Notes under the pieces: generated by a model
What the model saw: only the letters and a program-made list of their open reading frames with translations
What the model was told of the DNA's origin: nothing
Databases searched by the model: none
Made by a program: the position numbers and the translations under genes
Virus record (IMG/VR): IMGVR_UViG_3300021600_000007
Span: 1 to 52,801 of that record
Reading direction: 5' to 3' (one strand)
DNA from: a virus
Lineage: Duplodnaviria; Caudoviricetes
DNA length: 52,801 bases
In this document: in pieces, positions 4,914-45,491 of the stretch
How the letters are laid out: each line of letters begins with the position of its first letter
Numbering within the stretch: position 1 is the stretch's first letter

Positions 4914-7133
4914 TTATTTTAAAACATTCAAACTACCTGATAATACTTTTCGATAGTCAGTCTTTAATGCTTTGAGTTCTACATTCCATGTATAAATTCC
5001 GATTGGTACCATTCGATTATTAAACGTTCCATCCCATCCCTCTTCAATATCATGAGATTCCCATATAATTTCACCCCATCTATTAAATAATGTCATCTTG
5101 TATCCGTAAATGTCAAACCCTGAAGTTACTATAGGTAACCATGTATTGTTATGTTCATCACCATCAGGAGTAAACGAGTTTGGAATATATAAAATGTCTT
5201 GAGGACATTGGATTATGGTTATTACTGTTTCTTGTTGTGGTGATGCACATTCATTAACATAATTCACAACAGATAATGTAAACATTCCAAATTCATTCCA
5301 ACTTGTATTAAATGTTTCAGTTTGTGTTGTATTGTTTAATAATGTCCATTCGTTATATCCACCAGGAACTGTTGAAACAATACTATATATACTTGGTATT
5401 GAATCTCCATCACATAGTTCAAAGAAATCGTTGTATGGAGTTATTTGAGAGATTGTTGGTCTTTCATAAACAATGATGTTTGTTGTTGTATCAAAGATAC
5501 ATCCACTTTGAATATATGTGTATGTAATATTATTGTTTAATGTATCCGCATTGGATGGGTAGAAATCATTTCCTGTAATTCCTGTACCATTAAACACTCC
5601 TCCGATTGGTGTTGCGCTTAATGTGGTAAATTCATCGTTGGAACAAAATGGTCCAATAGGTGTTATAACGGGAATTACATTAAAGATTGTAATGTCGAAC
5701 GATACAGGTACACTTATACATCCATTTGGACTTACGGCAACCATGTCAACCGCATTTGGAATGAACCCTGCAGGAAACCCTGACCAATCAACAACGATTG
5801 AATCTGTTCCTTGACCTGAAACAATATTACCAACTGACATCCATTGATATGTGTATCCAATACCTAAATCAGTTGTGGTATATACTATATTTGTTGATTC
5901 ATAACATACCGTATCTGAAGCGATGATTGGGTTTGCAATTACAGGTAATGGATTAACTAATGTTGCTCCACCTGAAACGGTACATCCTGCGGCATCGACA
6001 ACGGTGAATGAATATGCTCCCGCACATAAATTATTTATTGTGAACGATGGTAATTGACCATTCCAAGAAATGGTGATAACACCTGTTCCTCCAATTGATA
6101 TTACATTAATTGCGCCATCACAACTACCTGTACAATTTGGATTGAATGTTGTTACAATTGGTGGTGGTAAATTTGGTGGACCTGGTGCAACAAAAACCGT
6201 ATCAGGTCCTAAGTTACCCGTATTTAAATTACAGGATGTCCATCCCGCATTACATGTTGGGTATACAAAATGACAAGTATAGTTTGTTCCTCCTGCAGGT
6301 GGTGTAACCGTAATGGTTGGTCCCGTTCCTATTGGAGTTGAGTTACCTACCTGATACCAAGTTAACGTTGGAGTAACTACAGGACCGCTTGGTGTCCATC
6401 TGTAAGCATCATTGTTTGCCGTCCAAGCAGTTGAGTTTCTACCTGCAACAGCAATACCAATAGTTCCACCTAAATTATGTATCCCTTGTGTTGATGTACC
6501 TCCTTGCCATTGTAAACACGCAGGTTTACTTTGAATGTAACTCTCAATATTGTTGGATGATTCGTATATTACAATATGAAAAGTTCCTTGATTACCTGTA
6601 CAAGAAAACATAGGAACTCCAATCCAACTAACAACAAGTTTTCTACATGGTGCAACTCCTTGAACTTGATATTTGATTTGACCTCCAATACCAGGATGCC
6701 AATCTTGCCAAGGTCCCATGATACAATTCTTAGGCACTAACGGATTAGCCGTTGGGATTGGTTGAGATGTAAACGTTACGGGTTGTCCTCCACTGAATGA
6801 AATCCAACCATTAGACCCAACATAAAATTGAGTATAGGTTGTACCAAAGAAACAGAAGTTAAACCCAATACTAAATGGTCCTTGTTGGGAATCATCTGTC
6901 ATAAACAAACTTGTCCCTGTGTTGGTTTGAGCAACGTACGGTATGTTAGTAACACCGTAGTTTGTTGTTTGATTTGGGTTTACACCACCTCCACCACATT
7001 GGGATAGGTTAGCGGTTAATGTTGTCGTACCAATACCACATGGAAGTAATTGGTCAGGTCCTAAATCAGGACAATACTGCGTATACCCCATAGACGTTAA
7101 TAGGGTTAAAAATAAAATAGTTAGTAATCTCAT
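4914..7133 (-). CDS. secreted beta-rich protein with gliding-motility-associated (T9SS type B) C-terminal domain
   Basis: signal peptide MRLLTILFLTLLTSMGYTQ; SprB/Ig-like Cys-Gly-Thr segments; C-terminal YIPNSFTPDGDEHNNTW...FNRWGE...GWDG signature. Confidence 0.85.
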   Translation of the reverse strand: MRLLTILFLTLLTSMGYTQYCPDLGPDQLLPCGIGTTTLTANLSQCGGGGVNPNQTTNYGVTNIPYVAQTNTGTSLFMTDDSQQGPFSIGFNFCFFGTTYTQFYVGSNGWISFSGGQPVTFTSQPIPTANPLVPKNCIMGPWQDWHPGIGGQIKYQVQGVAPCRKLVVSWIGVPMFSCTGNQGTFHIVIYESSNNIESYIQSKPACLQWQGGTSTQGIHNLGGTIGIAVAGRNSTAWTANNDAYRWTPSGPVVTPTLTWYQVGNSTPIGTGPTITVTPPAGGTNYTCHFVYPTCNAGWTSCNLNTGNLGPDTVFVAPGPPNLPPPIVTTFNPNCTGSCDGAINVISIGGTGVITISWNGQLPSFTINNLCAGAYSFTVVDAAGCTVSGGATLVNPLPVIANPIIASDTVCYESTNIVYTTTDLGIGYTYQWMSVGNIVSGQGTDSIVVDWSGFPAGFIPNAVDMVAVSPNGCISVPVSFDITIFNVIPVITPIGPFCSNDEFTTLSATPIGGVFNGTGITGNDFYPSNADTLNNNITYTYIQSGCIFDTTTNIIVYERPTISQITPYNDFFELCDGDSIPSIYSIVSTVPGGYNEWTLLNNTTQTETFNTSWNEFGMFTLSVVNYVNECASPQQETVITIIQCPQDILYIPNSFTPDGDEHNNTWLPIVTSGFDIYGYKMTLFNRWGEIIWESHDIEEGWDGTFNNRMVPIGIYTWNVELKALKTDYRKVLSGSLNVLK

Positions 7134-7264
7134 ATTGATAATTAGTTTAGTGTCCAATATATTAGACGTTAGTTCAACGTTAAAGTACGATGAATGAATA
7201 ATAATACTTATATTTTTATTATTCAACTATTTTCAACAATTAATAATTACTATCTTTATAACAT

Positions 7265-7549: not shown

Positions 7550-7897
7550 ATGAGTAATACCACCAAAATAGAAAAAGTTATTAGTAAAATTATTGTACCT
7601 CAGCATCCTGAGTTGTTAGAATTTGAAGTTAAAGATTTATTTGAAGATATGTATGACTCAGGAACTACATTAGGTCAACAAATGTTGGGTCGTCAATATG
7701 TTATAGAGTTTATCACATCGGAATGTTTAGATACAAAGAAACAAATGGAAATCGATACTGAGGTAAAATCATTATTTGTGATGTTATCTCCTGATGTCAA
7801 CAATCTCCATCAGAAAACACCAAAAATATCATGTTTCTTTGATTGTGAAGATGGTGAAGGATTTGTATTTAACTCAGAATATGGGTACAATCATTAA
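7550..7897 (+). CDS. hypothetical protein
   Basis: 115 aa ORF; GTATTTAT just upstream. Confidence 0.65.
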   Translation: MSNTTKIEKVISKIIVPQHPELLEFEVKDLFEDMYDSGTTLGQQMLGRQYVIEFITSECLDTKKQMEIDTEVKSLFVMLSPDVNNLHQKTPKISCFFDCEDGEGFVFNSEYGYNH

Positions 7898-8610
7898 CCC
7901 ATATTAATTATTGACCATTTACCGTCAAAATCCTCAACCAAACAAGTCGCATTCTCACAGAAATCACCTGAATTCATATAGTCCTCAGTTAATTTTGGTT
8001 GGTGGATATGTCCACATACCGCAACATCACAACCTTTACTCTTTGTCAATCCTTTAGCGTTTTCTTCAAAGTCAGATACAAAATTGATTGCTCCCTTAAC
8101 ACTTTGTTTAATATCATTTGCTAATGAATGATAAGGTAAGTTAAACTTTCTCCTGAAAAAATTATATGTGGTATTCAATCTTATTACCAAGTCATAAGAT
8201 ATACCACCAATTATTGCTAACCATCTTACTTTCATAATAACAAAGTCAAGAACGTCTCCGTGAAAACAATAGTACTTTCTACCATCGGCTCCAATGTGAG
8301 TATATTTCCTGACAATTTGAATGTTATTCATAAAGAATGGTACAAATGGTTTTAGAAAATCATCGTGATTACCTCTAATGTAAACCACTTTTGTTCCTGT
8401 CTCACTTCTCTTCATAAATCTTCGGAATATTTTGGAACATTCTTTTTTCCATTTTCCTCCACTTTTAAGTGCCCATCCATCAATGATGTCACCATTTAAA
8501 ATTAATGTCTCAGACTGATTATTTTCCAAGAATTTAATAATCTTGTCTGTTTGTGATTGTCGCGCACCAAGATGCAAATCACTCATTATTATTGTTCTCC
8601 ATGTGTTCAT
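7894..8610 (-). CDS. LpxH-like metallophosphoesterase (UDP-2,3-diacylglucosamine hydrolase family)
   Basis: SDLHLG, NGDIIDGW, RGNHD, HGD, GHIH, NSGD motifs. Confidence 0.85.
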   Translation of the reverse strand: MNTWRTIIMSDLHLGARQSQTDKIIKFLENNQSETLILNGDIIDGWALKSGGKWKKECSKIFRRFMKRSETGTKVVYIRGNHDDFLKPFVPFFMNNIQIVRKYTHIGADGRKYYCFHGDVLDFVIMKVRWLAIIGGISYDLVIRLNTTYNFFRRKFNLPYHSLANDIKQSVKGAINFVSDFEENAKGLTKSKGCDVAVCGHIHQPKLTEDYMNSGDFCENATCLVEDFDGKWSIINMG

Positions 8611-9338
8611 GACCAATAACTCTTACTGTCTTTAAAATATTCTTTATTGTTTTTATTTAGGACCGACCCAATCATTAATTTGGTCATGTACCACAAACCT
8701 TTATTATGGAATCTTCTTGGTGGTGTGTATACAAAAGCATTATGTATTTTAAACATATTACTTTTTATTTGTTTAGAGTAAACATAATCTTCAGCAACTT
8801 TAGCTTCTTCATCAAACCCACCAATTTCTTTGAATTTTGATGTCTTTGTTAACATGAATCCACCTAAGCAGAATGGCGATATTAACATTGAAAGTTTTTG
8901 TAGGATGTCAAAAATCTTATAAACATAATTGTAGTTTCCGTTGTCAGTTCTGAACCTAACACTAACTAAGTCTAAGTTTTCATTTTTTATCTTTGATACA
9001 ACGTTATTTAACAATTCACTATCCAATAAGAATATGTCAGCATCCATGAATAAAACATATGGTGTTGAAACTAATTTAAAACCGTTATTTCTTGCGGTAG
9101 CAGGTAACCCACCTTCCATCAAATTTAAATTGAAGTTATCTGTAATCGAATCGTATTCCAATCTGTCTAATAATGATGGTTTTGTTATTCCATCATTTGA
9201 TGAATCACACACAACAACTTTAACTCCATAAATATTTGTTTGATGGTTTAATAAATCTAATGTCTTAAATATAATATCTTTCTCGTTCTTACAAGGAATG
9301 ACAATAGTTAATAAATCACTTAATTTCATATTACTCAT
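8607..9338 (-). CDS. glycosyltransferase family 2
   Basis: TIVIPCKNE, ARNNG, FMDAD, GGFDE..AED motifs. Confidence 0.9.
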   Translation of the reverse strand: MSNMKLSDLLTIVIPCKNEKDIIFKTLDLLNHQTNIYGVKVVVCDSSNDGITKPSLLDRLEYDSITDNFNLNLMEGGLPATARNNGFKLVSTPYVLFMDADIFLLDSELLNNVVSKIKNENLDLVSVRFRTDNGNYNYVYKIFDILQKLSMLISPFCLGGFMLTKTSKFKEIGGFDEEAKVAEDYVYSKQIKSNMFKIHNAFVYTPPRRFHNKGLWYMTKLMIGSVLNKNNKEYFKDSKSYWS

Positions 9339-9344
9339 TTATAA

Positions 9345-9740
9345 TTAAATACTACCAAGACGTTTTCGTAATTCCGTTGAACTATATTTGTGAGTTCTTT
9401 TGTTAAAATGATATTCCATTTCTAAATTGCATCCCGTGAAAACTTTGTTTCGATATTCATCACCTAATATTCGAATACCAATGTTATTATTTTGAAGGAT
9501 TGTCATTAGTTCTTTTTCAGTTTCATATGGTATAATCTCATCAACATATTTTACTGCAGATAATTGAGTCCATCTCTCATAAAAAGATTGAATTGGTTTA
9601 TTCTTATCAGGTCTATCCAATGTTGGATTTACTTGTAAAGCAACAATCAGATGGTCGCATGCCGATTTTGCTTCTTTTAACATTAAAACGTGTCCCGCAT
9701 GTAATAAATCAAACGCACTGGCAGTTATTCCTATTTTCAT
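9345..9740 (-). CDS. cytidylyltransferase (TagD/glycerol-3-phosphate cytidylyltransferase-like)
   Basis: FDLLHAGH (HxGH), YVDEII, R.H.YSSTELR motifs. Confidence 0.88.
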   Translation of the reverse strand: MKIGITASAFDLLHAGHVLMLKEAKSACDHLIVALQVNPTLDRPDKNKPIQSFYERWTQLSAVKYVDEIIPYETEKELMTILQNNNIGIRILGDEYRNKVFTGCNLEMEYHFNKRTHKYSSTELRKRLGSI

Positions 9741-9742
9741 AT

Positions 9743-10603
9743 TTAAATTTTTTCACCTTTTTTAATAACACCGTCAATTCTATTTTTGTGGTGATAATCT
9801 TCACCGATGGTTTCTTTGATACTCTCTTTTATTGTTTGAACTACTTCTCGTCGTCTATGGTGAGGGTCGTTAAGAGTTGCTTTTACTCCATTTTGAATGA
9901 TATCATCCAATCTCTCATCACCATCCTCCCAATCACCATATTCGGTATGTTTCACACCATTATCAATAACCTCTTCAACATCAAATTGGTCTGACCAATC
10001 ATATTCTTTAGGTAGAATATCAGAATAAGTGTTTTTAATACCCTTTTGAATGATTTTTTCAACTGATTTGGTTAACTTCATATCATGACAACAGGTCTCT
10101 TTGATACCATTTTCGATAACATCTTCAATAACACAAGAACCATCAATTTGTAGAGAGCCGTTGGTTAATTTTACCCCATTTTCAATGGTGTTTTCAATAA
10201 AATAATCACGATTATTAGGTGCACCAAGTTTAGTATCTTTTACACCATTCTCTATGGCATCTTCAACCTTTGTACCTAAAAGTTGCGGTTCGTGCCAACT
10301 TGTGTACTTCACCCCATTTTGTATTATGTTTTCAACATCTTGCACGGGCATGTTTCCGAATTTGTTGATTTCCTTCACCCCATTTTGAATGGTGTCTTCA
10401 ACCCTTTCCTGAGAATTAAGACTTTTTGAATCCTCGGTGTGTTTCACCCCATTTTTAATGGTGTCTTCAACATCCTCCGACGACAAATATGGACCACTAC
10501 TGGTGTGCTTCACCCCATTTATAATGGTATCTTCAACAATGCCACCATATCTCCGGTGTAGGAGGTTGGTGTGTTTCACCTTATTTATAACATTATCCTC
10601 AAC
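9743..10603 (-). repeat. CRISPR-like in-frame array A (13 x 36-nt repeat, 12 spacers of 30/33/48 nt)
   Basis: repeat left ends on + strand at 10568,10502,10436,10367,10301,10232,10163,10094,10028,9944,9875,9809,9743; coding consensus GTTGAAGACACCATTCAAAATGGGGTGAAACACACC. Confidence 0.85.
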
Positions 10604-10822
10604 CCATTTGGTAATGTAGTGTTGATTTTCAACAACATCCATTGAAAGGTACATCATTAAGTCTTTAAAGAAATTATAGTTATACCATAGGGTACCGTCT
10701 TTTGTGAGTTCGATTACCCATTTTTTACTTTCCGTAAATATAAGCCATGTGGAGTCTTTGGTTTTATATGTATCGACTCCTTCGACGGCATCATTAATCA
10801 TTCTATTAACAACCTTCTCCAT
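9743..10822 (-). CDS. repeat protein A: conserved N-domain + 13 VEDTIxNGVKHT repeats with variable spacers
   Basis: 359 aa ORF, paralog of 12826-13887. Confidence 0.8.
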   Translation of the reverse strand: MEKVVNRMINDAVEGVDTYKTKDSTWLIFTESKKWVIELTKDGTLWYNYNFFKDLMMYLSMDVVENQHYITKWVEDNVINKVKHTNLLHRRYGGIVEDTIINGVKHTSSGPYLSSEDVEDTIKNGVKHTEDSKSLNSQERVEDTIQNGVKEINKFGNMPVQDVENIIQNGVKYTSWHEPQLLGTKVEDAIENGVKDTKLGAPNNRDYFIENTIENGVKLTNGSLQIDGSCVIEDVIENGIKETCCHDMKLTKSVEKIIQKGIKNTYSDILPKEYDWSDQFDVEEVIDNGVKHTEYGDWEDGDERLDDIIQNGVKATLNDPHHRRREVVQTIKESIKETIGEDYHHKNRIDGVIKKGEKI

Positions 10823-10864
10823 TTTACAATTATAGAGAATAATATCATAACAAACAATACCTTA

Positions 10865-11050
10865 TTATTTTTTTCCTTTGGGAATGATTCTAAATGCGAG
10901 AACTCTCTTACCATTAACGGTTGGCATTCCGTATTCGTCTTTACCAATACTCTTAACGGTTGTTTTTTTGTTTTTAAATCTACCTGTATAGATGGTGTCC
11001 CCAATCTTTAATGGGACATATATTCCGTCAATTCTATTATTGTCTTCCAT
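10865..11050 (-). CDS. small hypothetical phage protein (SH3/KOW-like)
   Basis: LKIGDTIYTGRFKNK..V..IGKD..G.PTVNG. Confidence 0.65.
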   Translation of the reverse strand: MEDNNRIDGIYVPLKIGDTIYTGRFKNKKTTVKSIGKDEYGMPTVNGKRVLAFRIIPKGKK

Positions 11051-11371
11051 TTATTCTATAGTTTCTTCTTCCATACAGTTGTCGGATTGGTTAAGTAAAA
11101 CCGTTGGTCTAACCCCAATGAAGTTTTCAATATAGTTGGCAAGTCTATGTTCGGTTTGATTACCATGATAAGTTGGTGTTATGACTAGCACAATATATTC
11201 GTCTGTTTTATCTATTGGCATTTTAACTGCCACAACATCACAAATAGGACCTTTAATAAAATTAAAAACAAGTTCTTCCATCATTTGACCTAACTGACCT
11301 CTATCAATATTTTCTTTATTGAATTTTTTGGTCATGGTCCTTAATTGTTGTTCAGTTATAATATATTTCAT
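11051..11371 (-). CDS. hypothetical protein with MKYIITEQQL tag
   Basis: ORF in operon, ATG 11371. Confidence 0.7.
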   Translation of the reverse strand: MKYIITEQQLRTMTKKFNKENIDRGQLGQMMEELVFNFIKGPICDVVAVKMPIDKTDEYIVLVITPTYHGNQTEHRLANYIENFIGVRPTVLLNQSDNCMEEETIE

Positions 11372-11943
11372 CAATTGTTTTCCCTGTCTTTAATATCAAA
11401 ATAGAAAACATCAAGGTCTCTACCATTTTCAAGTTGTCGTATCACATCTTGTCTTTTAAATAAAGTGTGAGCCACAATATAATCAATCATTTCATCATCT
11501 GTTATTCCCTCAGGTCTAACAGGTTCATCTTTGCAACGGGATTCTCTTTCAACAGAGCCAATTTCATCAATATTTAATCCTGATTCATTAACCAACTCTT
11601 CAAATTTTGGAACCATAAATTCATCATACCATTCTTCAATAACATGAAGAGCATACGATTCTTTAACACTGAATATGTTTTTGATTTTATTAACAAAATT
11701 GTTAGTCACAATTAAATGTCCCGATTCAAACTTACCGTCTTCAAAGTAATAAATTGCGGTTATTGAATTAACATTATCAATACACCAATCTTCACTAAGA
11801 TTTCCAAAATTGTTGTTTTTTGTTCTGAAAGTTCTTTTACCCTCCGAAATAAGAAGATTTAAATATTTAACAATCCCATTCTGTAAAGCAAGACTACTTC
11901 TATTGAATCGATTGAATTGTTCTTCTGTAATTATTATTCTCAT
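11371..11943 (-). CDS. hypothetical protein with MRIIITEEQF tag
   Basis: 190 aa ORF. Confidence 0.7.
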   Translation of the reverse strand: MRIIITEEQFNRFNRSSLALQNGIVKYLNLLISEGKRTFRTKNNNFGNLSEDWCIDNVNSITAIYYFEDGKFESGHLIVTNNFVNKIKNIFSVKESYALHVIEEWYDEFMVPKFEELVNESGLNIDEIGSVERESRCKDEPVRPEGITDDEMIDYIVAHTLFKRQDVIRQLENGRDLDVFYFDIKDRENN

Positions 11944-12236
11944 TTTTTCTTGTTAACTTTATTAAAACCTTTTCTAATTTTATTATTAAATTGTCCCGAT
12001 ATTAACATCATAAATTTGTGACTTGGGACTTCAATATTTGGATTATTATCTTCAAAATCACCTTCAATTCTATTTATTAACCATCTTTCATAAACACCAA
12101 AATTATCAGGTCTATTACCTGGCCCACCACCTTTTATATCATCATTTAATTCTTTAATATTAGTGTCAAGAATTTGTTCTAACTCACTTAATCTTCTTAA
12201 TAAGGCCATTTGAGATTCCGATAATATTATTCTCAT
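11940..12236 (-). CDS. hypothetical protein with MRIILSESQM tag
   Basis: 98 aa ORF; GTATTTATA upstream. Confidence 0.7.
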   Translation of the reverse strand: MRIILSESQMALLRRLSELEQILDTNIKELNDDIKGGGPGNRPDNFGVYERWLINRIEGDFEDNNPNIEVPSHKFMMLISGQFNNKIRKGFNKVNKKK

Positions 12237-12284
12237 AACTTATAAATACTTTGGTAGTATAAAGATTTTATGTATCTTTGTAAA

Positions 12285-12815
12285 ATGATACACCCTAAAC
12301 AAGTTTTGAAATTATTTGATGAGTTGAAGCCATTCCTTTATGGTCAGTCAATCAACGATAAAAATAATTTAATGGACGTAACATTGACATATACCAATCG
12401 TGGTCAATATGAGCTTAGGTATTTGATTCATCATCAATATAATAATAACATTATATTATATGAGGCAATTGTTGATTCCACCGAAAACTTAAACGAATGG
12501 TACGATTTTTCTCAACATGGTGATGATTTCAGGGTTATCATAGATTTTCATGAGGGTAATAGTAAAACTCATTTCAATTATAATTTCTTTGAGTTGATTT
12601 GGGAGATTGAAGAAACCAAGTATTCTCATATTGTTGGTTATGGTAATGACTCTAAACAATTATTGAGTCGAGACAAATCAAGATATAAAAGATACCGTGA
12701 ATGGAGAGTCGAACATCAGGAAAAGTTATCTCGTTTAATTGAACAAAAAAAACAAGAGTCAAATAAATTCCAAAAAAGTTTTTTGACAAGATTTAAAGAA
12801 AAATTATTCCACTAA
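12285..12815 (+). CDS. hypothetical protein
   Basis: ORF; ATG 12285 after TATCTTTG (12273-12280). Confidence 0.7.
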   Translation: MIHPKQVLKLFDELKPFLYGQSINDKNNLMDVTLTYTNRGQYELRYLIHHQYNNNIILYEAIVDSTENLNEWYDFSQHGDDFRVIIDFHEGNSKTHFNYNFFELIWEIEETKYSHIVGYGNDSKQLLSRDKSRYKRYREWRVEHQEKLSRLIEQKKQESNKFQKSFLTRFKEKLFH

Positions 12816-12825
12816 TAAATAAATT

Positions 12826-13887
12826 ATGAATGACAGATTAGAAAAAATATTGTTTATCATGTTTGATGAGTTAATCGAAGGTGTTGACCAATACAACCAT
12901 CAAGGTAGTTTATGGTTGATATTAACCGATGAAAGAAAATGGATTCTTGAGTTCACGAAAACGAAAACTTTATGGTACAACTATACCATATTCAAAGAAA
13001 GGATGAGTTTTGCAGCCATGGATTGTGTTGAAAATAAAGAGTATATAACCAAATGGTTTGAAAGTAGATTTTTGAATAAACCAAAGGCTCAGGACACTTG
13101 GTTTAAACGTAGTGATACGTCAAATCAAATTGAAGACACCATTCAAAATGGGGTGAAACACACCAACCAAGGAATTTTAAACATCATGGAGGCTGTTGAA
13201 GACACCATTCAAAATGGGGTGAGACACACCAGTAGTGGTCCATATTTGTCGTCGGAGGATGTTGAATACACCATTCAAAATGGGGTGAAACATACCGTTC
13301 CAGATGCATCAACAATCGGATATGCGGTTGAAGACGCCATTCAAAATGGGGTAAAACACACTCAACAACAACATAAACGTTCGAAGTTCACGATTGAAGA
13401 CACCATTCAAAATGGGGTAAAGAAAACCGATTTTAATATGTATCGTGACAACAATGCCGTTGAAGACACCATTCAAAATGGAGTGAAGGACACCCTCCTT
13501 TGGTTGAATACCAGAACTACTGTAGTTGAAGGAGCGATTCAAAATGGTGTGAAACAAACAAAACGTAGTTATGAAGGTTCAAGAAAACAGAGAACAAATT
13601 ACGTCATTGAAAATGGGGTAAGACATACAATGTGGAGTAACGATGATGACGATGTTGAAGATGCCATTGAAAATGGGGTGAAACTCACCTCTTGTGCAAA
13701 TTCAAACACAGATTCAAAAATTGAAGAAACAATTGAGAATGGTGTGAAACTAACCTTAGGTGAACGGATGAATCGGGATTATTCTGTTAAAGATATCGTT
13801 GAAAATGGGGTAAAGGATATTCGAAGTTATTGTGATAGGGATAAAAAAATAATTGAGGGTATCACTAAAAATGGAGTTAAGAACTAA
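12826..13887 (+). CDS. repeat protein B: conserved N-domain + 12 VEDTIQNGVKHT repeats with variable spacers
   Basis: 353 aa ORF, paralog of 9743-10822 (shared EGVD.Y....WLI.T...KW..E.TK..TLWYNY..FK...YITKW). Confidence 0.8.
   Translation: MNDRLEKILFIMFDELIEGVDQYNHQGSLWLILTDERKWILEFTKTKTLWYNYTIFKERMSFAAMDCVENKEYITKWFESRFLNKPKAQDTWFKRSDTSNQIEDTIQNGVKHTNQGILNIMEAVEDTIQNGVRHTSSGPYLSSEDVEYTIQNGVKHTVPDASTIGYAVEDAIQNGVKHTQQQHKRSKFTIEDTIQNGVKKTDFNMYRDNNAVEDTIQNGVKDTLLWLNTRTTVVEGAIQNGVKQTKRSYEGSRKQRTNYVIENGVRHTMWSNDDDDVEDAIENGVKLTSCANSNTDSKIEETIENGVKLTLGERMNRDYSVKDIVENGVKDIRSYCDRDKKIIEGITKNGVKN
13129..13887 (+). repeat. CRISPR-like in-frame array B (12 x 36-nt repeat, 11 spacers: nine 30 nt, one 33, one 24)
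   Basis: repeat starts 13129,13195,13261,13327,13393,13459,13525,13594,13654,13720,13786,13852. Confidence 0.88.
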
Positions 13888-13910
13888 TAAATTTTTATTA
13901 TCTTTGTAAA

Positions 13911-14588
13911 ATGATAGACAATTTAGAAATAATCAAACCACTTTTGAACTTCACTGATGCAGGTGACTTCTACATGCTTTATGTGTTCAAAAGAAAGAAA
14001 GACCAACCTGAAGATGAAAAAGACAATCATCAATCTGTAAGGACTATTAAGACCTATTGTATTGAAAGTATTGACCACCTTGAACGTAGATATGATGAGA
14101 TTAAACAACTTTGTGAGATGTTTAAGGCTCGTGCTTATATCCATGTCCAAAAACAAAATCACTTTGATGTTTCATTAAATATGATGGTTGAGTTGGCACA
14201 AAGAATTCAAAGCGGACAACACAATCAAAAAGGTTTATTTGATTCAGTTGTTGGTCAAATAAAAACCACAGAGAAAAGATGGATTGTTGATGTTGACATG
14301 AAAGATGAGGACGCATTAATGAAAATTATGAAACTCATTAATAATGGTTGCAAACCGTTGGATGTAGTGAATGAAACTCATTTACATAAGTCTGATGGTT
14401 CTGTGGAAGTGACTTATGATTATGACCCAAAAGTAATTGAGGTTATTCCAACTAAAAGTGGATATCATTTAATCACTAAACGATTTGATGTTATGACCTT
14501 TAACAAGATTATGTCTTTACAAGGTGATGTACCAGAAATACAAAAGAAGAACCCAACTTTATTATTTTACCCCAACTCTTTAGATTAA
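13911..14588 (+). CDS. conserved phage protein, possible AEP (primase-polymerase)-like fold
   Basis: WIVDVD (DxD) and PTKSGYHL motifs; TATCTTTG promoter. Confidence 0.5.
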   Translation: MIDNLEIIKPLLNFTDAGDFYMLYVFKRKKDQPEDEKDNHQSVRTIKTYCIESIDHLERRYDEIKQLCEMFKARAYIHVQKQNHFDVSLNMMVELAQRIQSGQHNQKGLFDSVVGQIKTTEKRWIVDVDMKDEDALMKIMKLINNGCKPLDVVNETHLHKSDGSVEVTYDYDPKVIEVIPTKSGYHLITKRFDVMTFNKIMSLQGDVPEIQKKNPTLLFYPNSLD

Positions 14589-23662: not shown

Positions 23663-24088
23663 TTATTTTAATGTTCTACTTATTTCTTTTTGAATATCTT
23701 TCTCCTTCATGGTCTGTCTCTTGTCGTGTAGTTTTTTACCACGAGCGAGTACGATGTCAACCTTGAGGGTGTGTTTTACTTGGTAAATTTTGTAAGGGAT
23801 AATACTTAAACCTTTGTCTAAACTCTTTTGAAGTTTAATCAACTCACGTTTTCTAAGTAATAACTTACGGTCTCTTTTGATGTTATCAGTACCGATGCCT
23901 GAGATGGATACGTTTTTCATGAATAACTCTCCATCTTGGAACATACAATAAGAATCAACAAAAGATAACTTACCATCACGAATGAATTTAACCTCAACAC
24001 CAGTCAAGACAATACCCGCTTGATACGTGTCCAAGAACTCGTATTCGTGCTTTGCTCTCCTGTTTACTATGTTGACTCCCTCTTTCAT
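23663..24088 (-). CDS. smpB: SsrA-binding protein SmpB
   Basis: NRRAKHEY..AGIVLTGVEVK.IR.G..RDRKLLL..E..LARGKKLHDKR. Confidence 0.93.
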   Translation of the reverse strand: MKEGVNIVNRRAKHEYEFLDTYQAGIVLTGVEVKFIRDGKLSFVDSYCMFQDGELFMKNVSISGIGTDNIKRDRKLLLRKRELIKLQKSLDKGLSIIPYKIYQVKHTLKVDIVLARGKKLHDKRQTMKEKDIQKEISRTLK

Positions 24089-24121
24089 GGGAACAAAGAT
24101 AATACAAATTATGATATAAAC

Positions 24122-24148
24122 AAAAATCCCCCACATTTCTGTGAGGGT
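24122..24148 (-). terminator. intrinsic terminator (recurrent family)
   Basis: AAAAATCCCCCACATTTCTGTGAGGGT. Confidence 0.7.
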
Positions 24149-31900: not shown

Positions 31901-33106
31901 TTATTTCCCATTTAAATTAAACTTTATTTCCTCAGGTTTTGTATTCGCCTTGGACTCCATCATCTCAGATGTTAATTCATATTCTTCATCATTTTGATAC
32001 TCATTGAGTAATTCTTCATTTGAAAGTGTGCCAAACTTTTCATTTAAATCACTAGTATTATAATCACTCATATTATTTTTCATGGTCATAAGTTCTTCCG
32101 CAAATTTTAAACTATCCAAAATTACTTTTGTAACTCTATATGGGTCAGCGTTTGAACCTGGTCTTCTATCTTCCAAATATCCTGTCCAAGATGATGCCGT
32201 AGATATAGGAACTCTAATTGACGCTCCTCTGTCAGCAATACCCCAAGAGAATTTATCCATTGATTGTGTTTCGTTTTTACCAGTCAATCTGTATTCATTA
32301 CCAGAACCATAATTTTTAATATGAACATCATGTCTTGATTCAAATGCATTGAAAATAGATTTGAAGTACTCTTCACCACCTTCAGTTCTCATTCTTTCAT
32401 TGGAGAAGTTGCAGTGCATTCCTGAACCATTCCAATCGCCATGTCTTATTGGTTTTGGATTCAAATCAATATTTAAATTATAATACTCAGCAACTTTGTA
32501 TAACAAATAACGAGACATCCACAAATCATCAGATGCTTTAATCGCTCCTTTAGAGAATAGTTGGTATTCCCATTGACCTAACAAAACTTCAGCATTTACA
32601 CCAGTAATGTCTAATCCAGCATTTAAACATAGTTGTAAGTGCATGTCAACAAATTCTCTTTCTGACACATTTTTTGTACCTACACCACAATAATATTCTC
32701 CTTGATGTTTAGGAAATCCTTTTTCAGGAAATCCAGCGATATTACCGTCTTTGGTTTTTAGAACATATTCTTGTTCAAATCCAAACCATATAGAATCATC
32801 ATCTAAACCTATTTCAGCTCTTAAATTAGATTTGTGTTCATTCCCAGTCATTGGGTCCATTACCTCGCACAAAACATAGTTAGTTGCATATTGACTAATA
32901 TCAAATGACGGATAAAGTCTTACAGGTCGGAGAATACAATCTGAAAAATTACCTTCAGCTTGTTTAGTAGATGAACCATCAAACGACCATAATGGTAAGT
33001 CATCCAATCCAAATTCCATTGGTAAATCAAGGATTTTAATTTTACTTCTTAAATTTGGTTCGGGACTGTATCCATCTAACCAAATATATTCTAATTTAGT
33101 TTTCAT
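31901..33106 (-). CDS. glnII: glutamine synthetase type II
   Basis: EYIWLDG..LRSK, W.FDGSST.QA, GFEQEY, YYCGVG, NAEV..GQWE, PKP..GDWNGSG.H, RGASIR, EDRRP.SN.DPY. Confidence 0.92.
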   Translation of the reverse strand: MKTKLEYIWLDGYSPEPNLRSKIKILDLPMEFGLDDLPLWSFDGSSTKQAEGNFSDCILRPVRLYPSFDISQYATNYVLCEVMDPMTGNEHKSNLRAEIGLDDDSIWFGFEQEYVLKTKDGNIAGFPEKGFPKHQGEYYCGVGTKNVSEREFVDMHLQLCLNAGLDITGVNAEVLLGQWEYQLFSKGAIKASDDLWMSRYLLYKVAEYYNLNIDLNPKPIRHGDWNGSGMHCNFSNERMRTEGGEEYFKSIFNAFESRHDVHIKNYGSGNEYRLTGKNETQSMDKFSWGIADRGASIRVPISTASSWTGYLEDRRPGSNADPYRVTKVILDSLKFAEELMTMKNNMSDYNTSDLNEKFGTLSNEELLNEYQNDEEYELTSEMMESKANTKPEEIKFNLNGK

Positions 33107-44422: not shown

Positions 44423-44569
44423 ATGTCAGAAACTGGTTGTAAAAAATGTAAACAAAAAGGTCCTAGTAATTTTCAAATAGGTTCAATAATTTTAGGTGTC
44501 TATATTATAGTGACATCAATATACGGAACGATTGAATTTGTTAAAGATATTGTAGGATATTTTAAATAG
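44423..44569 (+). CDS. small CxxC + TM protein (not in ORF track)
   Basis: MSETGCKKCKQK..TM helix. Confidence 0.5.
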   Translation: MSETGCKKCKQKGPSNFQIGSIILGVYIIVTSIYGTIEFVKDIVGYFK

Positions 44570-45491
44570 GTCTGTTAAATTTAACATTTAATTTAACATA
44601 CATATCTCCGCTATTATATCCCTTACCCTTTAATCTTAAAGGTTTAGAGCTATCAAATATTGGTAAAGCGTTCATTACCAAATCACCATTTGGATGTGGA
44701 ATATTAAATTTATCCTGTTGGATTTGTTCTAAATCTAAGAATAGATTATAAATCAAATCATTATTAATTTTTTCATAACCATCTTGGTTAACCATTTCAA
44801 TTTGAATAACTAAATCACCGTATTCACCGTTTCTAAAATCACCTAAATTACCAACTTTAAGGTATTGTCCATTGTCAACCCCAATTGGTAGTTTAACTGT
44901 AACCTCATGATTTTGTGGTTTAACCCCTTTACCATCACAATGATAACATCTATGTGTTAAAGTATGTCCTCGACCTGCACAAGTGCCACAAGCGGTTCTA
45001 ATTTGTTGAACCATGAATCCTGTACCAAATGTTTTTATTTGGAATCCAGCTCCTCCACAAGTCCCACAAGGTTGTTGTTCTCCACCACTACCAGAACAAA
45101 TGTTACAATGATTGTCTTTTATATAGTTAATCACCTTATCAACTCCTTTAAACGATTCAATCGGATTAACCTGAACTTTGATTATTTTATCGGGTGCAGA
45201 TTTTCTTCTTTGATTGAATGGATTTTGTTGTTGTCCAAACATTTGATTAAAAATCTCCTCATAAGACATTCCGCCATTACCAGCAAATGGATTGTTTAAG
45301 TTGTTATTGTATTGAGCTCGTTTTGCCTCATCACCGATTATACCATATGCAACCGTAATCTCTTTAAATTTCTCAGCACCTTCAGGATTTACATCAGGAT
45401 GGTACTGTTTACTTAATTTTCTGTAAGCCTTTTTGATTTCATCTTGTGTAGCATCTTTACTTACACCTAAAATTTCGTAATAATTATTCAT
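44562..45491 (-). CDS. dnaJ: DnaJ chaperone
   Basis: J domain with HPD, four CxxCxGxG, C-terminal domain. Confidence 0.92.
   Translation of the reverse strand: MNNYYEILGVSKDATQDEIKKAYRKLSKQYHPDVNPEGAEKFKEITVAYGIIGDEAKRAQYNNNLNNPFAGNGGMSYEEIFNQMFGQQQNPFNQRRKSAPDKIIKVQVNPIESFKGVDKVINYIKDNHCNICSGSGGEQQPCGTCGGAGFQIKTFGTGFMVQQIRTACGTCAGRGHTLTHRCYHCDGKGVKPQNHEVTVKLPIGVDNGQYLKVGNLGDFRNGEYGDLVIQIEMVNQDGYEKINNDLIYNLFLDLEQIQQDKFNIPHPNGDLVMNALPIFDSSKPLRLKGKGYNSGDMYVKLNVKFNRPI

Follow-up and report, generated by a model that had tools for sequence, protein, structure and literature searches.

Genes A and B of the window (the whole 52,801-nucleotide stretch of viral DNA analysed here) are translated genes of an uncultured large freshwater phage, and the protein family to which they belong is big, unannotated and restricted to viruses. 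The reading that we favour, and to which we give somewhat better than an even chance, is that they encode variable-surface repeat proteins diversified by module exchange. In such a protein, a small folded N-terminal domain would be followed by a rod or string of 22- to 23-residue modules, each made of a constant piece and a variable peptide. The constant pieces would most likely stack as rungs of a beta-solenoid-like scaffold, and the variable peptides would form an exposed, changeable face, giving a putative surface-binding protein. Whole modules would be gained, lost, replaced and re-ordered by recombination inside the 36-nt constant pieces, with the DNA of these pieces kept uniform even at synonymous sites and change quickest at the N-proximal end. 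Recombination may be the only source of this change.

A preliminary description had reported gene A as a second, inverted paralog, about 2 kb from the other copy, with its own in-frame array of 13 repeat units. Parsing of the open reading frame (ORF) returned the same number of units and exactly the same spacer lengths (30, 30, 33, 30, 33, 33, 33, 30, 48, 33, 30 and 30 nt), with all spacers in frame and free of stops (Table 1). The 36-nt (12-aa) repeat is present as 12 clear copies and a degenerate first unit, VEDNVINKVKHT, which covers aa 74-85 and was modelled by AlphaFold2 inside the last helix of the N-domain. The paralog, gene B, lies 2003 nt from gene A in divergent orientation, and the N-domains of the two proteins are 50% identical. 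The spacer content of the two copies is, as had been described, almost entirely different: the single common linker, SSGPYLSSED, is identical at 30/30 DNA positions and is also found in five relatives (L044, L054, L047, L088 and L057), and the other linkers could not be aligned between the paralogs.

Table 1. Features of the A/B region of the window.
Feature	Position	Strand	Description
Gene A	9743..10822	minus	359-aa protein, N-domain and 13-unit module array; ORF listing and parsing
N-terminal globular domain of A (aa 1-82)	10577..10822	minus	AlphaFold2 model
Array A	9743..10603	minus	13 units of 36 nt, 12 linkers of 30-48 nt
Linker SSGPYLSSED of A	10472..10501	minus	Sole linker in common with B
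Gene B, paralog of A	12826..13887	plus	353 aa, N-domain and 12 units
Array B	13129..13887	plus	Units 1-6 (13129-13494) are the query of register-perfect alignment A2
Linker SSGPYLSSED of B	13231..13260	plus	
Conserved upstream neighbours of A (61-, 107- and 190-aa ORFs)	10865..11943	minus	No family assignment
Downstream neighbours of A	7894..9740	minus	Pfam matches
Cytidylyltransferase-like gene downstream of A	9345-9740	minus	Pfam
Family 2 glycosyltransferase gene downstream of A	8607-9338	minus	Pfam
Metallophosphoesterase gene downstream of A	7894-8616	minus	Pfam

Three further points of the preliminary description held in both genes. The best-conserved repeats had been placed near the 5' end, at units 2-4, and conservation is highest at these units in A and at units 1-6 in B. 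The stop had been described as the last codon of the final repeat, and it is codon 12 of the last unit both in A (IDGVIKKGEKI, then stop) and in B (IEGITKNGVKN, then stop). Finally, the reported 240 stop-free spacer codons were recovered as 131 in A and 109 in B, with no stop among them. The five alternative frames of family linkers contain 0.04-0.16 stops per codon, and from this rate we estimate the chance probability of 240 open codons at about 1e-5 or less. Because the spacers are unrelated, Tandem Repeats Finder is blind to most of these arrays; it detected array B in part (period 66, 2.5 copies) and nothing in array A. A search for additional paralogs, which had also been suggested, found no third copy within the 52.8-kb record.

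Homologs of A numbered 2423 at E<=1e-3, and the N-domain alone matched 330 representative clusters (50% identity); among the 150 of these clusters that were listed, the match begins within the first 54 residues of the protein. The family was found on 39 viral loci, on contigs of up to 318 kb, and has 252 metagenome relatives. Prokaryote genomes from 185,579 species yielded one match, on a 3.4-kb contig of a metagenome-assembled genome. Family members have an N-domain of about 82 aa followed by 5-29 modules of 22-23 residues, in which a constant 12-residue piece, [VI]E[DN]xI[QE]NGVKxT, is joined to a variable linker of 10-11 residues. The glycine at position 8 is present in 1327 of 1357 family units and the lysine at position 10 in 1280 of 1357. 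Linkers are 10 aa long in 1377 of 2518 cases and 11 aa long in 451. Family arrays terminate at a stop inside the last unit (EKGEKI followed by the stop 11 times, SRGISI followed by the stop 9 times, and others).

Searches of Pfam, PHROG and NCBIfam with A, B and their neighbours returned only sub-threshold matches, and the three upstream ORFs had no match in these collections. Dodecin (PF07311) was rejected as an assignment, since it scored 21.9 bits against a gathering cut-off of 22.5 and covered only a 16-residue stretch of B. No match to A was found by tblastn against 50,697 phage records, the ESM Atlas contained the A protein itself and no usable neighbour, and a search of the open-access literature found no description of this protein family.

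The upstream ORFs of A keep their synteny in relatives, with 80-100% identity in those closest to the window, and the downstream neighbours are 96-100% identical in close relatives. The downstream set of cytidylyltransferase, glycosyltransferase and metallophosphoesterase was found at 8 of 36 distinct loci with enough sequence (the nucleotidyltransferase at 6), and this synteny is thus lineage-specific. Glycosylation of the conserved threonine was considered as a general mechanism on the strength of the nucleotidyltransferase and glycosyltransferase genes and the heptosylation of TibA-like beta-helices; the idea was dropped because these neighbours are present at only 8 of the 36 loci. The neighbourhoods (122 neighbour proteins from 11 loci) are accessory regions with small ORFs, about one-sixth with a Pfam match, and no structural (virion) module, protease or modifying enzyme was found in them. 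These neighbourhoods count against the favoured reading, as they offer no tie to virions or to a target. A promoter and terminator scan gave results at chance level (48 found versus 48.8 expected). Contigs from RNA libraries among the sequencing runs are a weak hint of transcription.

The array is coding. Across all family loci examined, 1018 of 1038 DNA-level unit matches lie in ORFs with the N-domain, every one of the 1018 in frame, and the remaining 20 belong to contig-truncated or broken genes. The dN/dS of the spacers, a comparison proposed in the preliminary description, was estimated from linkers paired at >=60% identity with those of 10 near relatives; dN was 0.005-0.046 and dS 0-0.32, and the ratio is biased downward because pairing needed this identity. 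Linkers that are kept are under purifying selection.

Modules turn over, and their turnover is polar, being fastest N-proximally. Whole modules distinguish relatives whose N-domains are nearly identical, and in close relatives with flanking genes 96-100% identical only 22-100% of the array is alignable, as expected from the earlier suggestion that spacers turn over much faster than the scaffold. Orthologs of gene B in two relatives (L047 and L088) have N-domains 91-94% identical and different N-proximal modules. Mapping of metagenomic reads for polymorphism in units or spacers had been suggested, and a contig from one sequencing run (X4) showed such variation: 9 differences were found in 809 nt of flank, and in the array 202 nt were skipped and 40 nt replaced by 103 nt. 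Uncovered array stretches in a second run (X3) carry no evidential weight. Alternative junctions at repeat units were seen in a third run (X1) and may stem from other family genes in the same sample. Unit content thus varies in populations and spacers other than the common one are unalignable between the paralogs, the reverse of what had been named as evidence against such turnover. As for its mode, whole units are gained, lost and replaced together with their linkers, and point mutation is not the route, the linker dN being as low as given above.

Common linkers occur in varying order, and internal repetition of linkers was found in only 14 of 204 proteins. Along 84 complete genes, the identity of units to the family consensus drops from 0.83 at the N end to 0.70 at the C end, and the proportion of linkers common to close relatives climbs from 0.27 to 0.58. 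Of 39 linkers with near-identical flanking units, 32 sit in the first two-fifths of the array. C-proximal linkers are conserved family-wide, and turnover is concentrated in the N-proximal half; in the gene A lineage, the first linker is common to relatives and change begins at module 2. A diversity-generating retroelement target was rejected as a class for these genes, since no RVT_1 domain was found in five near-complete relatives and variation proceeds by whole modules rather than by point changes.

The N-domain of A was predicted by AlphaFold2 as a helix, four strands and two helices, with pLDDT 93-97 over residues 1-80. Foldseek returned no match to this fold at E<=1e-3, and the best VIA score (Z 5.3, the SecA2 cross-linking domain) was at noise level. 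In the whole-protein AlphaFold2 model, residues 83-359 of the array had pLDDT 32-62 and were unfolded, and the ESM Atlas model of A had a mean pLDDT of 0.56. When AlphaFold2 was given the register-perfect alignment A2 (43 six-unit segments), the top one of five models reached pLDDT 63 and pTM 0.55, and each of its units had strands at residues 2-6 and 9-14; the other four models had pLDDT 32-33. The constant piece probably forms a pair of short strands with an Asn-Gly turn between them. Among solved structures, the best model came closest to beta-solenoids only: MpAFP (Z 8.9), TibA (Z 8.8), EtpA (Z 8.8) and CsgA (Z 8.1), where a Z of about 9 lies in the range that repeats attain by arrangement alone; the weak Foldseek rows were of the beta-solenoid class too. 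The appearance of this fold in one of five models and the unfolded array of the whole-protein model weigh against the favoured reading, as do the hydrophobic residues, which number about three per module and are sparse for a solenoid core, and the linkers, which have no hydrophobic pattern.

These properties could also indicate that the array is intrinsically disordered. The 12-mer would then be a short docking motif whose 5-29 copies bind with high avidity to a partner that is itself multimeric or polymeric, with the linkers acting as spacers of fixed length. We consider this unlikely. It is consistent with the low pLDDT of the array in the whole-protein and ESM Atlas models, with linkers that are polar, low in alanine and without positional pattern, and with the strong conservation of G8 and K10 in the motif. 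However, unlike mere spacers, many linkers are conserved family-wide and are under purifying selection, their strict length of 10-11 residues fits a structural period, and the one model obtained with the registered alignment folds every unit alike.

Unit DNA is uniform. Across 1231 units from 107 genes, synonymous codons are fixed position by position: valine is GTT in 94% of units at position 1 and GTG in 65% at position 9, threonine at position 4 is ACC in 84% of units versus 31% outside units, and glycine at position 8 is GGG in 60% versus 10%. Conserved columns of the N-domain mostly have mixed codons, and the last 14 or so codons ahead of the array are codon-invariant. Young linkers, taken as those with near-identical flanking units (34/36 positions or more), are exactly 30 nt long in 38 of 39 cases; older ones measure 27, 30, 33 or 36 nt. 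The young linkers have GC1/2/3 of 0.45/0.40/0.45, without codon-position structure, in a phage of 31% GC, and the more the flanking units have diverged, the lower is the linker GC3 (0.45, 0.32, 0.30 and 0.26). Without locus L029, GC3 was 0.41 versus 0.28 (Mann-Whitney p=2e-5; Spearman rho 0.24). At L029, runs of 5-6 identical units enclose unrelated linkers of GC 0.54, and the locus has GC 0.31. Young linkers are more hydrophobic (0.31 versus 0.26) and less charged (0.19 versus 0.28) than old ones, and linker-to-linker identity within a gene is random (0.287). Foreign origin of the linkers in bulk was rejected, because singleton linkers have GC3 0.31, like the phage, and the signal emerges only after classing by flanking-unit identity. 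Plain recombination does not explain the position-specific codons or the 30-nt inserts of foreign composition at one end. It does not readily account for the identical 36-nt units with unrelated linkers at L029 either, and these and the fixed length and flat GC profile of young linkers stand against the favoured reading.

A CRISPR-type integrase could produce such a pattern if it inserted, close to the N-proximal end, a perfect copy of the 36-nt unit along with 30 nt of captured DNA. The enzyme would be host Cas1-Cas2, acting in trans on the repeat-like unit, or a novel enzyme of the phage. As 36 plus 30 nt equals 22 codons, each capture would write a new 10-residue peptide, and selection would retain stop-free inserts and polish them later. 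The 36+30 geometry of the newest linkers, the composition of L029, the fall of GC3 with flanking-unit divergence, the random identity between linkers and the N-proximal position of new modules are all consistent with capture. The invariant codons before the array resemble a leader junction, and the higher hydrophobicity and lower charge of the newest linkers are what raw sequence would give. In Flavobacterium columnare, repeats are 36 bp long in the II-C array as well as in the VI-B array, and the latter is filled in trans (PMC8092290).

Nevertheless, we regard capture as quite unlikely. A search for cas1/cas2 and reverse transcriptase genes had been recommended, and neither Cas1 (control search positive in 7 of 14 genomes) nor reverse transcriptase (RVT_1) was found in five relatives that are 91-100% complete. 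Rfam over positions 9000-14500 gave no CRISPR-DR match at E<=1 and only a chance snoRNA row. Protospacers were not found in searches of the loci, IMG/VR or cultured phages: the linkers of the window match only family arrays, 578 distinct linkers had three chance-level matches of 20-21 nt outside arrays among about 120 loci, two exact 30-mers in IMG/VR were self matches only, and the L029 arrays gave only chance matches to cultured phages, outside young linkers. Further, the shared first linker of the gene A lineage, with change from module 2, indicates that insertion would not be strictly at the first unit. If capture were true, this would be a heritable, polar, capture-driven diversification of protein and a new way to make proteins diverse. 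It might be exapted from CRISPR adaptation or related to it, and would add a new link to the evolutionary history of that process.

Multi-core peptide precursors, known from the cyanobactin literature, carry conserved recognition sequences around hypervariable cores, and the layout of A and B is akin to theirs. The N-domain would here serve as leader and each constant piece as a site of recognition or cleavage, and the linkers would be set free as peptides of 10-11 residues, in keeping with their sharply constrained length. This is very improbable: no protease or modifying enzyme is conserved nearby, comparison of the N-domain with leader-binding folds gave noise (PqqD Z 3.4, TbiB1 E 0.9), and the N-terminus has no signal peptide-like sequence. 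A genuine guide-RNA CRISPR array or RNA decoy with an incidental open frame is scarcely credible despite repeat and spacer sizes in the CRISPR range, unique spacers and degenerate repeats at one end, as a conserved folded domain precedes all 1018 units in the same reading frame, arrays end family-wide at a stop inside the last unit, selection is purifying at the amino-acid level, unit RNA structure equals that of shuffles on either strand (z ~0), and there is no Rfam match and no cas gene in relatives.

If the favoured reading of module exchange is true, A and B represent a large unannotated phage protein family with its own fold and thousands of members, which probably takes part in conflicts of phages with hosts or with one another in lakes. 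CRISPR-like loci in protein genes are known as false positives of array finders (CRISPRidentify, PMC7913763), and the vlpC locus of Helicobacter pylori is a CRISPR-like pattern in a protein gene (PMC6330956). The arrays of A and B resemble these cases in having a repeat-spacer pattern inside a coding tandem-repeat gene; polar addition, fixed 30-nt new inserts and a compositional gradient are not reported in the accessible portions of these two sources.

With CRISPR arrays themselves, such as those of F. columnare (PMC8092290), A and B have in common 36-nt direct repeats with a period of 66 nt and inserts, unrelated to one another, of about 30 nt. In both, the newest units gather at one end and degenerate ones at the opposite end, and strains have old inserts in common. 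Array A falls within the size definition of a CRISPR array (repeats of 23-50 nt, unique spacers of similar size). In contrast to CRISPR arrays, the A/B array is translated behind a folded domain, ends at a stop and keeps old inserts as peptides, and there are no cas genes in relatives, no repeat-family match and no protospacer found in the loci, IMG/VR and cultured phages searched.

Beta-solenoids, including TibA/AIDA-type autotransporters, EtpA, curli CsgA and the antifreeze protein MpAFP, are the nearest folds to the predicted structure (Z 8.1-8.9), with a rung per ~19-23 residues. Unlike these adhesins, to which they have no sequence relation, A and B are phage-encoded without a secretion signal, and the likeness comes from a low-confidence model in one of five runs. 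PARCEL/DUF285 proteins (PF03382) also consist of tandem modules, about 25 residues long, in which hydrophobic positions are conserved and hydrophilic ones vary; they differ in unit number, undergo shuffling and horizontal spread and have been seen in a jumbo phage too (PMC7765460). In A and B, however, conserved and variable residues form distinct blocks and are not interleaved, and this class was rejected, as neither protein had a DUF285 match in Pfam at E<=0.1.

The FNIP/FGxxFN protein Crov588 of Cafeteria roenbergensis virus (PDB 6nyr) likewise has a 22-residue period with a constant and a variable block (PMC9525666). The profile of alignment A1 matched Crov588 with an E of 1.4e-11 summed over three weak stretches, with VEDTIQNGVKHT aligned with VENVLPNGLTHL. 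However, this match rests on the other half of the repeat, and the LxxLxFGxxFN core is absent in A and B, where the variable linker takes its place. The FNIP/FGxxFN leucine-rich repeat (LRR; PF05725) was therefore rejected: the period agrees, but unrelated linkers stand in the place of the FGxxFN half, each predicted rung consists of two strands rather than strand and helix, and Pfam gave no FNIP or LRR match at E<=0.1. A further likeness to LRR and FNIP proteins is diversity that arises from module exchange. The variable lymphocyte receptors of lampreys are LRR proteins with conserved and variable segments, and recombination-driven modular surface change in A and B would be the phage counterpart of such variable LRR receptors.

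Genes A and B of the window encode members of a new phage protein family, in which an N-terminal domain (N-domain) is followed by a translated, fast-rearranging array of modules, each made up of a constant 36-nt (12-amino acid) unit and a variable linker. A sequence search at E ≤ 1e-3 matched 2423 proteins, almost all of them metagenomic (protein lengths of 214 to 620 amino acids among the 120 matches listed), and no real Pfam family was found for these 2423 proteins. Exhaustive searching with the 84-amino acid N-domain yielded 330 representative clusters; among the 150 listed, the match began within the first 54 residues. Viral contigs as long as 318 kb and 252 stretches of metagenome sequence contained relatives, and five relatives of 272 to 318 kb, 91 to 100% complete, each carried a single family copy. 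The one match among 185,579 prokaryote species (one genome each) was an N-domain at the end of a 3.4-kb MAG contig labelled Polynucleobacter (locus L124), most likely a phage fragment binned into the MAG. Across all loci examined, 1018 of 1038 DNA-level unit matches lay inside N-domain ORFs, all 1018 of them in frame, and the other 20 were in broken or contig-truncated genes. At four loci, the ORFs directly after a full family gene were small, with 0 to 1 units and an N-domain-like match, and a single stray unit separated them from it; they probably represent split or broken copies.

Features discussed in the text (positions in the window unless a relative locus is named)
Feature	Location	Strand	Details
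CHU_C type IX secretion sorting domain protein	4914-7226	-	770 aa; domain E 3.5e-12
Gene A	9743-10822	-	359-aa ORF, 13 units
ORF just upstream of gene A	10865-11050	-	61 aa
Three small adjacent ORFs	11051-12236	-	107, 190, 98 aa
Gene B	12826-13887	+	353-aa ORF, 12 units
SmpB	23663-24136	-	E 1.5e-44
Glutamine-synthetase-like protein	31901-33106	-	
DnaJ	44562-45491	-	full three-domain
Tandem paralogs, head to tail	L029:9264-11227	+	
Small ORFs after family gene	L013/L014/L015, about 10936-11708		
Small ORF after family gene	L017:6670-7051		

The preliminary description had reported gene A as a second, inverted paralog with its own in-frame array and rapidly changing spacers, and both the observation and its reading stand. 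The two genes are divergently oriented, 2 kb apart, with N-domains 50% identical. In gene A, all units (consensus [VI]E[DN]xI[QE]NGVKxT) are in frame and the linkers measure 30, 30, 33, 30, 33, 33, 33, 30, 48, 33, 30 and 30 nt, as described; in gene B, ten linkers measure 30 nt and two deviate, at 33 and 24 nt. The stop codon is indeed codon 12 of the final unit in both genes, and many family members likewise terminate within a unit. Spacer content had been described as almost entirely different, and the sole linker common to A and B was SSGPYLSSED, identical at the DNA level. Two metatranscriptome contigs (198 and 172 nt) mapped to positions 9955 to 10249 of array A with 0 to 6 differences, a weak hint of transcription, with DNA carry-over possible.

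The 107-, 190- and 98-amino acid ORFs beside gene A had no family match; they share a similar N terminus, M[RK]IIITE[EQ]Q..., and may be paralogs. Many relatives keep the first two in synteny with the repeat gene. The protein of the 61-amino acid ORF, of no known family, was 100% identical in at least 8 relatives with differing arrays. The window (52.8 kb, 32% GC) has a completeness estimate of 18% in its IMG/VR virus record and is therefore a fragment of a large phage; it also encodes a GH19 plus PG_binding endolysin, an SLT transglycosylase and two DNA methylases. The CHU_C domain is a hint only of a Bacteroidota host, and its protein may be a phage product exported via the host secretion system. 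The public runs bearing the region were lake and freshwater metagenomes.

The proposed rapid turnover was borne out in close relatives, in which flanking genes were syntenic and 96 to 100% identical and the array was alignable over 22 to 100% only. Compared with A and B, relatives with nearly the same N-domain had whole modules inserted, deleted, replaced or fused. The terminus of A is an internal unit fused with the family's terminal KGEKI unit, and because of this fusion three modules of relatives L045, L046 and L048 are absent from A. Variation was also detected at the population level: a contig from sequencing run X4 had 9 differences over 809 nt of upstream flank, while within the array 202 nt were skipped and 40 nt were replaced by 103 nt, and array-internal contig breaks occurred in all three DNA runs. 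Linkers shared between relatives are under purifying selection (dN 0.005 to 0.046 versus dS 0 to 0.32), with the matching cutoff of at least 60% identity pushing dN downward. The 2518 linkers of 215 proteins comprised 1019 distinct sequences; those of 10 residues formed 365 clusters (195 singletons), and those of 11 residues only 27. EYGDW[EL]DGDER (84 times) and xxSLQIDGSCV (63 times) recurred widely in 122 proteins. The order of common linkers was variable, with internal repetition in only 14 of 204 proteins.

Codon choice within the unit was fixed position by position (1231 units, 107 distinct genes): GTT for Val at position 1 (94% versus 60% outside units), ACC for Thr at position 4 (84% versus 31%), GGG for Gly at position 8 (60% versus 10%) and GTG for Val at position 9 (65% versus 12%). 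In the N-domain, by comparison, most conserved columns mixed synonymous codons, except for the last ~14 before the array. This uniformity reflects either continual homogenisation across the phage population or constraint on the DNA itself. The array was polar in 84 complete genes: from its N-terminal to its C-terminal fifth, units matched the family consensus at DNA identities of 0.83, 0.84, 0.81, 0.75 and 0.70, and the fraction of linkers that could be paired with one in a close relative was 0.27, 0.32, 0.43, 0.53 and 0.58 (214 non-independent pairs). We slightly favour the reading that the array is a scaffold with a variable surface, whose diversity arises by recombination within its DNA-uniform constant pieces.

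Residues 1 to 82 of A were modelled by AlphaFold2 with pLDDT 93 to 97 as a helix, four strands and two helices, with no recognisable fold in structure-database comparison, and the array part had pLDDT 32 to 62. An array of disordered, multivalent docking sites is one of the two main alternatives to a scaffold that presents a variable surface, though an unlikely one. Because module shuffling scrambles ordinary alignments, 43 six-unit segments in perfect 22-residue register were aligned. One of five resulting models reached pLDDT 63 and pTM 0.55 (remaining models, pLDDT 32 to 33), with two strands about an Asn-Gly turn in every unit. Its nearest solved folds were all beta-solenoids (Z 8.1 to 8.9), and weak Foldseek matches were also of this class; a beta-solenoid-like array fold is suggested by this model, not established. 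The family profile also matched Crov588, an FNIP-type repeat protein (E 1.4e-11 in total over three weak stretches), but only in the repeat half that lacks FGxxFN, the defining core of that repeat (PMC9525666).

The clearest young array seen was that of the L029 tandem paralogs, whose first 5 to 6 units were identical at 36 of 36 nt, with unrelated 30-nt linkers between them (linker GC 0.54 versus 0.31 for the locus) and one linker in common with a single mismatch. When linkers were classed family-wide by the identity of their flanking units, GC3 was 0.45 at 34 or more of 36 positions (39 distinct linkers, 38 of 30 nt), 0.32 at 30 to 33 (113; mostly 30 nt, some 33), 0.30 at 26 to 29 (212; 30 nt plus 33, 27, 36 and 24) and 0.26 below 26 (214; a mix of 30, 33, 36 and 27 nt). 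GC1 and GC2 were about constant; GC1/2/3 in the newest class was flat at 0.45/0.40/0.45, and the GC3 contrast persisted without L029 (0.41 versus 0.28, p=2e-5). Compared with old linkers, the newest had higher hydrophobicity and less charge, and 32 of the 39 lay in the first two fifths of the array. They look foreign in composition, and the pattern reads like raw 30-nt DNA inserted with a duplicated unit and then ameliorated.

This uniform length and flat composition would suit a CRISPR-type capture of DNA that writes peptides, but we consider such capture, the other main alternative, improbable. Neither Cas1 nor reverse transcriptase, a search for which the preliminary description had proposed, turned up in the five near-complete relatives. 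Window positions 9000 to 14500 matched none of the CRISPR repeat families in Rfam, and no protospacer was found for linkers against ~120 loci, two exact 30-mers against IMG/VR or the L029 arrays against cultured phages. The unit RNA had no special structure, and 122 neighbour proteins at 11 diverse loci, which were accessory regions with small ORFs without known function, included no cas, reverse transcriptase or virion-structure genes. In Flavobacterium columnare, the repeats of the II-C and VI-B arrays are 36 bp long, and it is the II-C machinery that fills the VI-B array in trans (PMC8092290); a host-driven reaction on the phage array is therefore conceivable.
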